A stretch of DNA of 10,358 bases, from UHGV virus genome UHGV-0379321; one strand, 5' to 3'. The stretch comes from a virus. The translations under genes were made by a program, and so were the position numbers. Within the stretch, counting starts at the first letter, position 1. Each line of letters opens with the position of its first letter. Under the pieces are notes generated by a model. It did no database searches and was not told the origin of the DNA. It saw only the letters and a program-made list of their open reading frames with translations. Below are positions 1 through 6,878 of this stretch, one piece after another.

Positions 1-71
1 AACCAGTATCCCGCACTACCAGCGGATGTTCCGTAGGCAATGCCAGTTGAGATTTTGTCCATTGATTTCAT
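1..71 (-). CDS. S: Holin, phage-21 S-type pinholin; 5' end only, gene runs off the window
   Basis: Minus-strand ATG at 69-71 preceded by GGCGGAGG RBS; translation [23 protein letters not shown] matches the N-terminus of phage 21 S holin as I recall it (two Met starts at codons 1 and 4). Upstream non-coding stretch resembles the lambda region just upstream of S. Confidence 0.8.
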
Positions 72-190
72 AGCAACGCCTCCGCCAGTAACGGATTGCG
101 TAGTTCTTATATTGGGAAGGGGAAAAAAAGAAGGCCGCAGCGTAACTATCACTGATGAATTCATGATAGCCAGTGGCTACGGCTCAGTTA

Positions 191-266
191 TGGTGCTGGT
201 TAACGGACTTGAACCGCTACCCATTCGCTTACAAGGCGACTGCTCTACCATTGGAGCTAAACCAGC
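191..266 (-). tRNA. tRNA-Thr (anticodon UGU), phage-encoded
   Basis: 76-nt cloverleaf folded by hand on the minus strand: 7-bp acceptor GCTGGTT/AACCAGC, D-stem GCTC/GAGC, anticodon loop CTTGTAA, T-arm AGCGG-TTCAAGT-CCGTT, discriminator A, encoded CCA. Differs from E. coli thrU. Confidence 0.7.
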
Positions 267-271
267 ATATT

Positions 272-346
272 TGGCGGGACAGCGTGGACTCGAACCACGA
301 TAAGAAGGTTAACAGCCTTCCGTAATGACCTTTATACGACTGACCC
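272..346 (-). tRNA. tRNA-Asn-like (anticodon GUU), phage-encoded, one acceptor-stem mismatch
   Basis: 75-nt fold: acceptor GGGTCAG/CTGTCCC with a U4-U69 mismatch, perfect 5-bp anticodon stem GAAGG/CCTTC, loop CTGTTAA, T-arm CGTGG-TTCGAGT-CCACG, discriminator G, encoded CCA. D-arm is weak (3 bp). Only 5 nt from the tRNA-Thr. Confidence 0.5.
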
Positions 347-400
347 AAATAAAAAAAGCCACCGTTGCAACTTAAGAGTCACTAACGGCAGCTTATGCGA

Positions 401-431
401 ATAGTGTTGCTCATTTGCTCAATGATGTCAA
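401..431 (-). promoter_or_regulatory. Candidate late promoter PR' (and likely Q-utilisation region) just downstream of Q
   Basis: TTGACA -35 hexamer at 426-431, 7 nt after the Q stop, mirroring lambda where PR' -35 directly follows Q. No convincing -10 at 17 bp (AACACT/CACTAT), so the call rests mainly on position. Confidence 0.35.
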
Positions 432-437
432 CACGTT

Positions 438-926
438 CTATGCTACATGTTTAATTTTCTCTACACGTTTCCGGTTTTTAAACGCACTATCCAGAACCGG
501 GTAAATCATAAACAACGAGGCATTGAGGATTTCGTCAACTTCCCGTCGACAGGTTGCGAGCGATGGTTTTTGAATGCGCCCGCCGCCCCGGCATAACATC
601 TTGCGAGGTCTTGCGACGCGATGATAGTAAGATGCAATGGCGTGCTTGGAAGAGCCGTGGGCGTAGTAGCTGAGGAGGATGCCAAAGGCTTTCTTGTCAA
701 TGTACATGACGGAATCGACGACCTGAGAAATCAACATTCCATCATCATCATTACACATTGGCCTTGTCATAACTCTTCCCGGCTCTACGCTCTCCATGAA
801 CTTAGCTATTACGCTGCTCATGCGCTTTTCCAGACGACCTGAATAAACCCATGCGCCCCACAGTTCAAGCCAGCCATTCAGCCACTCGTGCTGTTCTTTG
901 GTGAGGTTTAGTTCTCTTATGCCCAT
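438..926 (-). CDS. Q: Late-gene antitermination protein Q (phage 82 / QuuD-type family)
   Basis: ELWGAWV motif and RPMCNDDDGM region resemble the QuuD/82-type Q family (ERWGAWA...RPQCCDDDAM). Sits between ninG and the late promoter/lysis genes. Start chosen at ATG 924-926 with GGAG RBS; an upstream in-frame ATG at 983 is possible. Confidence 0.7.
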   Translation of the reverse strand: MGIRELNLTKEQHEWLNGWLELWGAWVYSGRLEKRMSSVIAKFMESVEPGRVMTRPMCNDDDGMLISQVVDSVMYIDKKAFGILLSYYAHGSSKHAIASYYHRVARPRKMLCRGGGRIQKPSLATCRREVDEILNASLFMIYPVLDSAFKNRKRVEKIKHVA

Positions 927-2339: not shown

Positions 2340-2832
2340 TTTAATACCTCGCAAATTCGCCGAAACATTCATCCGCTTTATTTGCATATACTTTATGAGC
2401 TTCCTTTGGGTCATCGTAAAACCCAAGATTAACTTTCCTCTTGTTGATTACGATTTGCGCCCTCCATTTTCTTGATTTCTTATCCCATGAAACGCCTTTA
2501 TATCCTGATTTGTTATTTGCCTTTTTGTTTACGTTTTGGATGTTTTGAGATCGAGTTGCCAATCTAAGATTTGCTATACGATTGTCATCCCTAACGAGAT
2601 TTATGTGGTCGATATCACTTTTTGGTAGACTGCCATTCATATAGAGCCACGCCAGCCTGTGTGCCTTATAAAGTTTTCCATCGACTTTTATTACCCAGTA
2701 GCCTTCGCTACTCTTATGCCCTGCGATATCCCCAGCATTCATTCTCTGGCATTTCTTTACTTTCCATGTGAATTTCCCTGTTAACTCATCGTAGAGAAGG
2801 ACTTCTTTAAGTCTCTGCTGAGTTATTTGATT
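2262..2832 (-). mobile_element. About 570-bp homing-endonuclease insertion inside ninB (between NinB codons about 32 and 33)
   Basis: Sequence homologous to lambda ninB stops after ...CCAACCAAACCAATC (around 2833) and resumes at ...ATCATTGTCGAG... (around 2262); the intervening DNA encodes the HNH-AP2 domain plus 78 nt that supply a new NinB start. Confidence 0.65.
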
Positions 2833-2928
2833 GATTGGTTTGGTTGGGTCTGGAATGATTTGCTGTACTGCGTGAATAGCGTTCTGCTGATGGATGTGGC
2901 TTCTTAGTTCAAACGTTAGTTTCCTCAT
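2341..2928 (-). CDS. HNH homing endonuclease with C-terminal AP2 DNA-binding domain, fused in frame to the first 32 codons of ninB
   Basis: Residues 1-32 (MRKLTFELRSHIHQQNAIHAVQQIIPDPTKPI) match the lambda NinB N-terminus. The rest carries an HNH motif (DIDHINLVRDDNRIANLRLATRSQN) and an AP2-like segment (SGYKGVSWDKKSRKWRAQIVINKRKVNLGFYDDPKEAHKVY). GGAG RBS before ATG 2926-2928. Confidence 0.85.
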   Translation of the reverse strand: MRKLTFELRSHIHQQNAIHAVQQIIPDPTKPINQITQQRLKEVLLYDELTGKFTWKVKKCQRMNAGDIAGHKSSEGYWVIKVDGKLYKAHRLAWLYMNGSLPKSDIDHINLVRDDNRIANLRLATRSQNIQNVNKKANNKSGYKGVSWDKKSRKWRAQIVINKRKVNLGFYDDPKEAHKVYANKADECFGEFARY

Positions 2929-3540: not shown

Positions 3541-5934
3541 TCATACGTCAGCCCCTTGTGCATATCGTCTGCCACGCGCAGCAGGTGCATTTGATGCTGT
3601 GCAAATCTGTCTGGCTTCATCCTGGTCACATGCAACAAAGTGTCCGTTACAGAACCGCTGGTAAACCGTACCAAGTGAGCCAAAACGGTTTTTCGTCACG
3701 ATGATTTCAGCAAATGGCGCGGCGCTACTGTTCTCGTCATATACCGCTTCCCGATAGAGCATGATGATTGAGTCTGCGTCCTGCTCAATGCTTCCTGAAT
3801 CACGCAAATCTGCGTTTGTCGGGCGTTTGTTTGGTCGCTTCTCAACATCGCGAGAAAGCTGACTTAGGGAGATAACAGGCGTTTTCAGGTCTTTCGCCAT
3901 CGCCTTCAGGCTTCCGGAGATGTGAGCAATTGCGAGGTCGTTGCGGTCTGCTTTCGGCTTCTCAATCAGGCCAAGATAATCCGCCATGATGAGTGACAGG
4001 TTTGGATTTTCCTGTTTGTGTCGTTCTGCGATTGAGCGTATTTCTTCGACCGATAACCGCGAGGCATCGACTACCCATACATCCAAATCCGCAAGCTGAC
4101 TCATGCCGTTAGCAACGCGCGCCCAGCCTTCGTCATCCATCGCTGCAGGATTTCGCAGTACGCTAACCGACATCCTCCCGGCGTTGGCAATACTTCGCTC
4201 TGCAATCTGCAATGCGCTCATTTCCATTGAGAAAATCAATACTCCGCGCCGGACGTCAGAACCAGGAATAACACGGCTTGCAACGCCTTCGGCAATCTTC
4301 AGCGCCAGTTCCGTATTGTGCGTAACGATGTAATCCGTTGTCACATAGAGATGGCTAGGATGGCTTACCATGATGCAGAGACACTCTTCTGGCTCAACAA
4401 CTTCAACCGATTTGATACCCACACCAAGGTCGCCAAGCCTGTTAATCCCGAGATTTTTGCGTAAACGTGGTGAGTGAATTTGCTCTATCAAAGATGATGG
4501 CAACTTCATGCTGACCATGTGTGCATCAAGTCCGTCATGCTTCTCTCCTTTGTACGTGTAAACTATTCCCGTCCTGCTGGATTCTTTGGCGGTTCCACCT
4601 AAAGATCTAGCAAGCCTTACTAATCCTTTAGCTAATTTCTGACTGGATGAACTAAAGCGGATGCATCCGGACTTCTCAACCCAGCCATCTGTCTCGAGAA
4701 GGCCAGTTAAAACACCGGTACGTATTTCTTTGCTAGCACTAAAAATTTCTGCTGGGATTTCCTTCTCGGACGCACCTTTCCCGATCACCCCAATGCCACG
4801 TAGTTTGTCCAATAGTGGGTTCTTCTGGCCTTTTTGGTTGCTTATCAAATAATCATTCTCTCCTACCTTAACCAGTCGCAATGGTGCAATTGCATCACTC
4901 ATGCGGCTCAGGACATATTCTTCCGAGTTGGTGAATTTGATGCCTTTTATCAACGAACCGTCACCAAGTAGAGCACCAATAACCCAACCATCAAGGGAAA
5001 TATTTTTACCAAAGTCTCCGGTCAAGGATGGCACTCTTATTCTTCCCTGATAACGTGTTTTTTGTAGCATCCCAGCCAGCGCATCAGTATCAACAACGCG
5101 TTTACCAGTAAATCTTGATGATGAAATTTCCCATAAGTGGTTGTCGGCACATTTCACGCTACGTCCGTCTTCAAAGGTGACTAAATATGTGAATTTCTTC
5201 CCTTGTGGGAAGACGCCAATTACCTCCGAAGGAAGCCCGTCTATTGACGCGATGCGATCGCCAATTTTGACTTCTCCGTGAGTAGTCCAGGTGCCATCTG
5301 CAAGTAAAATCCCTTCGCTTAGCGCCATTGCTTTCCCCATACCAGGACGAGCAGCGATTATCACCAGGTCTTCCGCGTTCATCCCTCCGGTGATGGCGTC
5401 AAGTTCTTCGATTCCGGTCTTCAGGGTATCTGACTCTTCTCCGTTCCTCAGGCGCCTGTCAAGCGTGTCAGTGTAGTCAGTGATGATTTCCCCTAACCGT
5501 ACAGGTTTAACCTCGTCACGGGGCTTTCTGATGGCTGAGAGACGCTTTACAAGCTCGTCCATCGCCTGACTCGATGTATCGATGGTTCCGTTCTGAATTG
5601 GTTCACGCATTTCATCCATGATTTCCAGCACCAGACGGCGGTGATAGTTATCCGCGACCATTCCGGCATATCCCTTCAGGTTTGCGGCACTCGGGCAGTT
5701 TTTGCTGGTCATCAGGATTGACGTGAAATGCTCCTCTCCGCACGCCTCGGCAACCATCAGCGCGTCGATTAGGTTTCTGTTTCGCGCCTGCTTGCGGATA
5801 ACCTCGAAGGCTTTCCGGTAGAGCGGAATTGAAAACGCTTCCGGCTCCAGCGTTGCCAGAACGTCACTGGCAGTTGGTGTTAATCCACCAATCAGCAGAC
5901 CACCGATAACGCTCGCTTCGATATCCTGTCTCAT
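3541..5934 (-). CDS. Replicative DnaB-family helicase (P22 gene 12-type) interrupted by an intein; 797-aa precursor, 458-aa predicted spliced product
   Basis: DnaB N-terminal domain ([14 protein letters not shown]), Walker A split as ...[10 protein letters not shown] | intein | [10 protein letters not shown]..., DnaB motif [15 protein letters not shown]. Start ATG overlaps the O stop (ATGA). Confidence 0.9.
4315..5331 (-). mobile_element. Intein (339 aa) with LAGLIDADG homing-endonuclease domain, inserted between Lys and Thr of the helicase P-loop; class-3-like
   Basis: Starts with Ala after GMGK, ends in HN followed by +1 Thr. Two LAGLIDADG-type motifs ([15 protein letters not shown] and [15 protein letters not shown]). 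Block-B-like CADNHLW with Trp, a Cys in the F-block region (EECLCIMV) and Thr in VTHN fit the WCT pattern of class 3 inteins. Removing it restores GMGKTELAL. Confidence 0.8.
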
Positions 5935-6878
5935 GCAATCCCCCTGTCTGCAAACTTCCCTTCCCGAACTCCCGTTAACGAGTCTTCCCTCAGCAGGTAA
6001 TCAAAATCTGCCGTCCAGCCCGTGTCGTTGTCTCCGAAGTAAAACGGCTTGGCCTGATGTACAAACGCCCTGACATACGCTCTGAAACCGTCCACGTTTG
6101 GCGTTTTCAGTTGCGGGATGATTTTCTTCAGGCGGCGTTTGCGTTTCTCGTTGACCGCAACAGCGTGTGGCAGTCTGTCACCAACTTCGGTGTTGTAGGC
6201 GTTCAGGAAGGATTCGTAGTCGATGCGTTCTGCCTTGCGACGTTCAGGTTTAACCTGCCCATCGCCTCCCCCATTGGGGGGTAGGGGGGTATTATTTATA
6301 TTCTTGTTAATACCTTCTTGTTCATGATGTGCGGTTGTTTGTGCGGCTTCATGTGCGCTTTCATGTGCGGCATGTACGCTGAATGCCGCGCCATTACTGG
6401 CTTCATCATGTGCGGCATCATGTGCGGTTGTTTGTGCGGCTTCATGTGCGGGTGAATTGTCCATTTTTTGAGCATATTCATGGTAATTTGTGATGGTTAT
6501 CACACGACCTTTTTGCTTCTCCCCATCAATGGAGATCATCCCCTCTTTCACAAAAACCTGAAGCATCCGCTCAACCTGATCACGGCTTGCCGGCTTGCCA
6601 TGCCTGTCGCATAACTGAAGACCTAAATCAGCTGCTGTCACAACCAGTTGACCGGGTTGCAGATGCCATTCATGACCTTTGAAATTCGCTTTGTATGGCT
6701 TTCTGGCAGCATTCAGGAGAAGGTTTTCCCACAGGGTGCGAAGATAAACATCTTTCGCCCATGACTGTTTCAGAATGCTCCGGTACAACGGAATGTAACC
6801 AGTTTTCTGGTTCTCCATCCTGTTGCTCCTGCGCTCGTGTGCGGCGATGAAATCGTAGATTTTTGCTGTATTGCTCAT
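5931..6878 (-). CDS. O: Replication initiator, lambda O-like N-terminus, with internal origin
   Basis: N-terminus [10 protein letters not shown] resembles lambda O (MTNTAKILNF). Central low-complexity His/Ala-rich linker is encoded by the repeat array; C-terminal domain differs from lambda O, consistent with pairing to a DnaB-type helicase. ATG 6876-6878. Confidence 0.8.
6327..6451. repeat. Candidate replication origin iterons (about 9 copies of ATGTGCGG-like units in two blocks) inside the O gene
   Basis: Units (A/T)TGTGCG(G/C) at 6327, 6339, 6351, 6363, 6372, 6408, 6420, 6432, 6444; a 36-bp block at 6323-6358 is repeated almost exactly at 6417-6452. An AT-rich stretch and the palindrome CCCCCA-T-TGGGGG lie just downstream (6272-6320), as in the lambda ori layout. 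Confidence 0.55.

Follow-up and report, generated by a model that had tools for sequence, protein, structure and literature searches.

Late-control region with two tRNA genes

The window, by which we mean the whole analysed stretch of 10,358 nucleotides from UHGV virus genome UHGV-0379321, carries two tRNA genes in the leader of a lambdoid late operon. Over the 10.4-kb window, ARAGORN made two tRNA calls and no others, each on the minus strand. Read along this strand as it would be transcribed, the elements come in the order Q (926-438), pR'/tR' (431-347), tRNA-Asn, tRNA-Thr, and the start codon of S21 (ATG at 71). The features are as follows.

438-926, minus strand: gene for a Q21-type late antiterminator, 162 aa (PHROG 943, "anti-termination protein Q-like," E = 5e-90)
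396-431, minus strand: late promoter pR', identical in sequence to phage 21, with features mapped from OL657228 (−35 element at 431-426, −10 element at 408-403, transcription start at 396)
423-408, minus strand: Q-binding element (QBE), mapped from OL657228
347-394, minus strand: intrinsic terminator tR', a terminator in the phage 21 annotation
272-346, minus strand: tRNA-Asn (GUU; gtt in ARAGORN), 75 nt, called by ARAGORN and Rfam, with encoded CCA, G73, G1-C72, U4·U69, U13·U22, and a 4-nt variable loop
267-271, minus strand: spacer between the two tRNAs, 5 nt, AAUAU (AACAU in phage 21)
191-266, minus strand: tRNA-Thr (UGU; tgt in ARAGORN), 76 nt, called by ARAGORN and Rfam, with encoded CCA, A73, G1-C72, C2-G71, and G27·A43
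119-183, minus strand: conserved long hairpin (183-134) and then CUUCUUUUUUUCCCC, which resembles a terminator or an element for processing and bounds the tRNA module on its 3' side
1-71, minus strand: 5' part of the S21 pinholin/antiholin gene, which extends beyond the window end, with the dual starts of the phage 21 annotation at ATG 71 (S21-71) and ATG 62 (S21-68)

The Q gene was compared base by base over 438-470, where it equals phage 21, and its remainder was placed by mapping from the phage 21 Q coding sequence (L001 2035-2523). S21 was aligned over 40-71, again equal to phage 21, and positions 1-39 were assigned from the sequence, unaligned. The anatomy of the region is thus constitutive-type promoter with QBE, terminator, tRNA-Asn, tRNA-Thr, hairpin, and holin gene, and mapping to phage 21 bore out the order proposed in an earlier, sequence-only reading, which had put the tRNAs between Q with its late promoter and a phage-21-type S gene. 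Because of this placement, the tRNAs should belong to a Q-dependent late transcription unit. For the tR' element, folding gives a strong hairpin (−20.2 kcal/mol, z = −6.1), and its U-tract (UUUUUUUAUUU) leads directly into G1 of tRNA-Asn. A scan of bases 1-1000 for consensus promoters and terminators flagged neither pR' nor tR', with the terminator scan permitting loops of 3-8 nt only; we disregarded this negative result because the fold and the phage 21 annotation show both elements.

Both tRNAs matched the Rfam family RF00005 over the full length of the model (1-71). The scores, 61.5 bits for tRNA-Thr (E = 1e-11) and 55.3 bits for tRNA-Asn (E = 5.5e-10), compare with a gathering score of 29 bits and far exceed what a chance origin of either match would give. 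Two independent predictors, ARAGORN and the Rfam model, therefore concur on both tRNAs, each of which has the 7/4/5/5-bp cloverleaf and the conserved T-loop of a bacterial elongator tRNA and scores above threshold. As read from the sequence and the cmscan alignments, both genes encode CCA and stand 5 nt apart, and tRNA-Thr has a single non-standard pair, G27·A43. tRNA-Asn combines an acceptor mismatch, U4·U69, with a D-stem of three A/U-rich pairs plus U13·U22. Identity to the E. coli K-12 tRNAs is 65.8% for Thr (against thrU) and 57.9% for Asn (against asnT), and on these values neither phage tRNA is a copy of a host gene. The descriptive claims of the sequence-only reading all held: a Thr-UGU and an Asn-GUU-like tRNA at 191-346, an encoded CCA on both with 5 nt between them, a U-U acceptor mismatch and a weak D-arm in the Asn species, and no match to the E. 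coli thrU or asn tRNAs. The minus strand is the sole addition to that description.

The known identity elements are the GUU anticodon and the discriminator G73 for AsnRS, and G1-C72, C2-G71, G35, and U36 for E. coli ThrRS. Both of the former are present in the phage tRNA-Asn and all of the latter in the phage tRNA-Thr, and charging by the host AsnRS and ThrRS is to be expected on that ground. Among the 25 Asn variants described below, G73 occurs in at least 90%, and the anticodon is invariant. The anticodon loops, CUGUUAA in Asn and CUUGUAA in Thr, are those of the host asnT and thrU. Apart from the two tRNAs, a permissive Rfam search of bases 1-500 returned no family, which leaves the leader and the hairpin behind tRNA-Thr outside any known RNA family.

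The phage 21 module, its edges, and its relatives

Megablast of window positions 150-460 gave 99.7% identity to Escherichia phage 21 (OL657228.1), and an alignment of positions 40-470 (minus strand) to this phage contained one difference in 430 bases, a T versus a C in the spacer. Both tRNAs are 100% identical to those of phage 21, where tRNA-Asn is CPT_21_64 and tRNA-Thr is CPT_21_65. Within the aligned region, the sequences of Q21, pR', QBE, tR', and the S21 start are identical as well, and record OL657228 already annotates pR', QBE, the transcription start, tR', and both tRNAs. By tRNA identity and by its site between tR' and the holin gene, the locus is a late-leader module of the phage 21/Sf6 type.

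The rest of the window differs from phage 21. It is a lambdoid early-right region with cI, cII, an O-like initiator, a 797-aa helicase, an HNH endonuclease, NinB, and NinG. Its replication module (3541-6878, minus strand) comprises the O-like initiator and the 797-aa DnaB-like helicase, which has a primase-like region, and is ~97% identical to Stx2a-converting phages. A phage 21 late-control module together with a Stx2a-like replication region points to a mosaic prophage, and, as judged from these similarities, the window holds a clear mosaic junction between the replication module and the Q-tRNA-S21 module. In the nin region, the open reading frame of the HNH endonuclease (2341-2928, minus strand, 195 aa; PHROG 99, E = 2e-74) overlaps the start of the longest NinB-like open reading frame (1911-2426) by 86 bases.

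Both edges of the tRNA module were compared among phages. On the downstream side, bases 72-190 fold with −37 kcal/mol (z = −3.2), and the hairpin at 183-134 is kept in most IMG/VR copies as well as in Sf6 and BTP1. Where two phages differ in their lysis cassettes, homology stops at the 3' base of this hairpin. Sf6 and BTP1 continue past it without a U-run, whereas in the S21-type context, including the window, the hairpin is followed by CUUCUUUUUUU. Hairpin and U-run together resemble an intrinsic terminator, which would be the second one and would separate the tRNAs from S21; the phage 21 record leaves the hairpin without annotation. On the upstream side, we compared the 60 nt preceding tRNA-Asn in IMG/VR loci L011-L130 and found two unrelated tR' hairpins (AAGCUGCCGUUAG...GGUGGC and CCCGAAAC...GUUUCGGG) that abut the same UUUUUUAUUU-G1 junction of tRNA-Asn. 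Since two tR' types share one junction, the terminator U-tract probably serves as the 5' leader of the tRNA, and it also seems to be a recombination edge of the module.

The tRNA-Asn/tRNA-Thr pair is an already known, annotated feature of phage 21 and of related phages, including many E. coli, Shigella, and Salmonella phages. It is annotated in Sf6 (as "similar to phage 21" in GenBank), SfI, JLK-2012, BTP1, and many P22-like Salmonella phages, and the NCBI annotation pipeline labels the pair tRNA-Thr and tRNA-Asn in E. coli chromosomes. A match is present in 842 of 5426 complete E. coli genomes, or roughly one in six. The Asn sequence of the window is identical in phage 21, Sf6, BTP1, JLK-2012, and Salfasec13b. 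Sf6, SfI, BTP1, and other P22-like or lambdoid phages have the same tRNAs, with identical sequences in Sf6 and BTP1; their order and the 5-nt spacer length are also shared. The Sf6/SfI/BTP1 group also shares the tR' type and the downstream hairpin but has other Q alleles or other sequence near the promoter, and its holin is lambda-S-like where the window has S21.

In the literature, the SfI paper describes a tandem of Asn(GUU) and Thr(UGU) genes on the downstream side of Q, and one or both tRNAs at the same position in Sf6, ST64T, PS3, and p21 (PMC3636060). For p21 as a carrier, that paper cites Guo, Kainz and Roberts 1991 (PMC3636060), and GenBank records show the same. Two tRNA genes are listed in the genome announcement of phage 21 (PMC9119081). 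The phage L paper discusses P22-like phages whose late operon has tRNA genes at its 5' end and states that excision of such tRNAs from the late mRNA is unknown (PMC8022706). P22 itself is without tRNA genes here (PMC8022706), and these tRNAs are thus dispensable for this phage type.

Several relatives carry variants of the set. In Klebsiella phages, variants supplement the Asn-Thr core with Phe and Arg(UCU). The tRNA-Thr of JLK-2012 (L009 1094-1169) is chimeric, with a 5' half identical to the phage 21 type and a 3' half like that of host thrU; it receives no ARAGORN call and is followed by tRNA-Gly(UCC) and the P1-like tciA and tciB. In Salmonella phage Salfasec13b (L007 786-862), whose type is that of PS3 and ST-29, the tRNA that comes second, after Asn, is still of the Thr type in its acceptor stem and T-arm, but its anticodon region is rearranged, and it likewise lacks an ARAGORN call. 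A "Leu UAA" tRNA has been reported for phage L, and this second tRNA may be of the same kind.

Stx phages of the 933W type carry ileZ-argN-argO in the leader of the late operon, past Q/pR' and ahead of the late genes. The genomic niche is the same, with rare-codon Ile and Arg tRNAs there versus Asn and Thr here, and we saw no sequence relationship between the two sets. The window has the anticodons GUU and UGU and no other tRNA, so that the Ile plus Arg set of Stx phages is not what it carries. The sequence-only reading, which had called the pair a different cargo from that of Stx phages, was right in this respect, although the cargo is not new, being annotated in phage 21, Sf6, SfI, and BTP1. 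Phage P1 offers a further comparison. Its Asn(GUU) and Thr(UGU) genes are adjacent, ordered as here, and 2 nt apart (AF234172, 69348-69501; L131 1125-1278). P1 is an unrelated phage with the pair in a different operon, the C1-controlled ban region; its tRNA-Thr is ~80% identical to that of the window, and its tRNA-Asn, which has a canonical D-arm, comes from another lineage. Since the P1 pair is independent of the phage 21 pair, Asn plus Thr appears to be a recurrent cargo of temperate coliphages.

Conservation and covariation of the tRNAs

To obtain homologues, we scanned IMG/VR with the unusual D-arm of tRNA-Asn as the pattern and retrieved 120 loci. The exact Asn sequence of the window occurs in 64 of these loci and the Asn-Thr pair in 79; the others have Asn alone, Asn-Gly, or Asn-Phe-Thr-Arg(UCU). 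Across 25 distinct Asn variants, 92.8% of cells hold standard pairs, and both-sided changes were found in 15 of 21 pairs. None of 500 shuffles reached these values, and slid partners paired in 34-51%. In tRNA-Thr, 14 variants are paired in 94.9% and show compensatory changes at 3-70, 5-68, 6-67, and 51-63; 1-72 and 2-71 are invariant, and G27·A43 is present in 14 of 14. Covariation of the stems in both tRNAs indicates that both genes are under selection as tRNAs.

The odd features of tRNA-Asn, namely, U4·U69, U13·U22 in a 3-bp A/U-rich D-stem, and the 4-nt variable loop, would fit a decaying or non-functional tRNA remnant, and the sequence-only reading had suggested that the gene may be decaying. 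The homologues speak against this. The sequence is identical in the five phages named above and in the 64 IMG/VR loci, and its 55 Rfam bits are well over the threshold. Diverged variants keep U4·U69 while compensatory changes affect the neighboring pairs 5-68, 6-67, and 7-66 and, in the anticodon stem, the pair 28-42; examples of the acceptor stem are GGGUCGA...UCGUCCC in Klebsiella phages and GGGUAGG...CCUUCCC elsewhere, and 28-42 is A-U in some variants and C-G in others. Position 4-69 is unpaired in 13 of the 25 variants, all of the GGG-type lineage, and is otherwise U-A, U-G, or C-G. The anticodon, T-loop, and G73 are conserved. Invariance of the D-arm among these homologues arises by construction, as the D-arm was the search pattern; the same D-arm does occur with very different acceptor, anticodon, and T stems. 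The covariation thus largely refutes decay, which we regard as hardly credible; the mismatch and the odd D-arm seem to be conserved traits of a widespread phage lineage with covarying stems. We also rejected the idea that the tRNAs are integration-site remnants, as both are full length with CCA, covary, and lie in the late leader of many phages, and no integrase gene is adjacent.

The Asn D-arm, GUAU-AAAGGUYA-UUAC, occurs in addition in large tRNA arrays of big virulent phages, on contigs of up to ~200 kb (loci L015, L018, L033, L041, L050, L062, L096, L122, L127, and others). Nine of 10 Asn variants from large arrays or large contigs have a host-like U1-A72 and no encoded CCA.

Probable expression and possible roles of the pair

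Taken as a whole, the locus is best explained as an intact tRNA pair of the phage 21 type in a late-leader module, co-transcribed in a Q-dependent manner and excised by the host; we put the probability of this explanation at about 90%. The expression, processing, charging, and fitness benefit that we infer for both tRNAs would come about in the following way. The compact mobile module, made up of the tR' U-tract, tRNA-Asn, 5 nt, tRNA-Thr, and the conserved hairpin, would sit in the leader of a lambdoid late operon. RNA polymerase would initiate at pR' (396) and normally halt at tR' (394-347); once Q21 is loaded at the Q-binding element, polymerase would pass tR' into the tRNAs, S21, and the late genes. 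Host RNase P would then generate the 5' ends, and RNase E with 3' exonucleases would trim to the CCA, releasing tRNAs to be charged by host AsnRS and ThrRS. The steps from Q read-through to tRNA release are what established lambdoid biology would predict. The gain would be extra decoding capacity in late protein synthesis, clearest for the UGU tRNA, which reads ACA and ACG. Indirect evidence comes from BTP1 lysogens, whose tRNAs are identical: an RNA-seq paper set two tRNA genes aside in a list of genes above TPM 100 and had the late operon begin immediately behind the tRNAs (PMC7067206). We found no tRNA expression values in the supplements of that paper and no published experiment on expression, processing, or charging of this Asn/Thr pair.

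Codon usage in the annotated late genes of phage 21 (7289 codons) was compared with that in a 50-kb K-12 sample (14409 codons). Frequencies per 1000 codons are as follows.

ACA: 12.8 in phage 21 late genes, 5.8 in the K-12 sample (2.2-fold, p = 2e-7)
ACG: 25.7 in phage 21 late genes, 13.0 in the K-12 sample
AAC: 20.2 in phage 21 late genes, 22.2 in the K-12 sample
AAU (AAT): 17.3 in phage 21 late genes, 13.1 in the K-12 sample

ACA and ACG are thus about twice as frequent in the late genes of phage 21 as in the K-12 sample, and the side tail fibre gene of phage 21 reaches 33.5 ACA per 1000. E. coli K-12 has a single gene for the UGU Thr isoacceptor. No enrichment of Asn codons over the K-12 sample was found in the late genes; in the major capsid gene of phage 21, AAU serves for 9 of 11 Asn codons. 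Run on the late genes of phage 21, the codon comparison that the sequence-only reading had proposed came out in favor of the Thr codon ACA but not of AAC/AAU. In SfI, the same ACA bias and no Asn bias were found (PMC3636060). AGG, AGA, and CGG are over-represented beyond ACA in the phage 21 late genes, and no Arg tRNA is carried; codon supplementation can thus explain at most part of the cargo. As a reasonable explanation it applies to Thr only, and there we give it roughly even odds. For Asn it fails, and another benefit is needed.

A different reading is that the tRNAs act mainly as RNA-processing punctuation, with decoding secondary: RNase P and RNase E cuts would detach the pR' leader and so set the 5' end and the stability of the lysis/late mRNA. 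The architecture is in keeping with this, since the module has a fixed place between tR' and the lysis genes, starts right at the U-tract, and has the hairpin at its 3' edge, and since the same junctions recur with two tR' types and two lysis cassettes. Yet a pure processing signal would have no need of a conserved anticodon, synthetase identity elements, and an encoded CCA. Moreover, lambda late genes are expressed without a tRNA at this position. The same is true of P22 (PMC8022706). We consider punctuation as the main role very improbable.

A benefit in counter-defence has been weighed as well. Here the phage copies would replace host tRNA-Asn and tRNA-Thr cut by tRNA-targeting nucleases, be they defence systems, colicins, or CDI toxins, and acceptor-stem tRNases of the CdiA-CT(EC869) type should cut the phage tRNA-Asn poorly because of its G1-C72 pair, in place of U1-A72 in host asnT. 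Phage tRNAs do rescue phages from a tRNA-cleaving retron and from PrrC-type defences (PMC11555353). CdiA-CT(EC869) needs G73 together with a 1-72 pair that is weak or mismatched, and it cleaves tRNA-Gln poorly when this tRNA has been given G1-C72 (PMC9071432). The lambdoid lineage of tRNA-Asn has G1-C72, while 9 of 10 variants from large-phage arrays or large contigs keep the host-like U1-A72, and neither the late genes nor the SfI paper makes a codon-supply case for Asn. On the other hand, both anticodon loops equal those of the host and give no sign of escape from anticodon nucleases, for which reason we rejected escape through loop changes; CDI toxins work in competition between bacteria, not against phage. 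We found no experiment tying this tRNA pair to any nuclease or defence system, and to our knowledge no nuclease targets exactly Asn plus Thr, which also counts against the idea. Altogether, counter-defence strikes us as unlikely. A more specific form, in which the lambdoid tRNA-Asn is kept for an acceptor stem (G1-C72 and the conserved U4·U69) that resists acceptor-stem tRNases and in which supply in lysogens and a second stop are added, is quite improbable in our estimation.

The preferred reading, an intact phage 21-type pair in a late-leader module, amounts to a correct re-discovery of a well-annotated late control feature and, as found, matters little. The question that it leaves, posed in published papers too, is why temperate enterobacterial phages so consistently carry a tRNA-Asn without a codon-usage case; the carriers are phage 21-like, P22-like, and, independently, P1 phages. 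Were the acceptor-stem form of the counter-defence idea true, transcription from the constitutive pR' that leaks past tR' would provide tRNA-Asn even in lysogens, the post-Thr hairpin and its U-run would be a second stop that lets the tRNAs be expressed without the lysis genes, and the pair would be lysogenic-conversion or counter-defence cargo. Resistance to toxins or defence systems through the G1-C72/U4·U69 stem would, if true, be of real interest.
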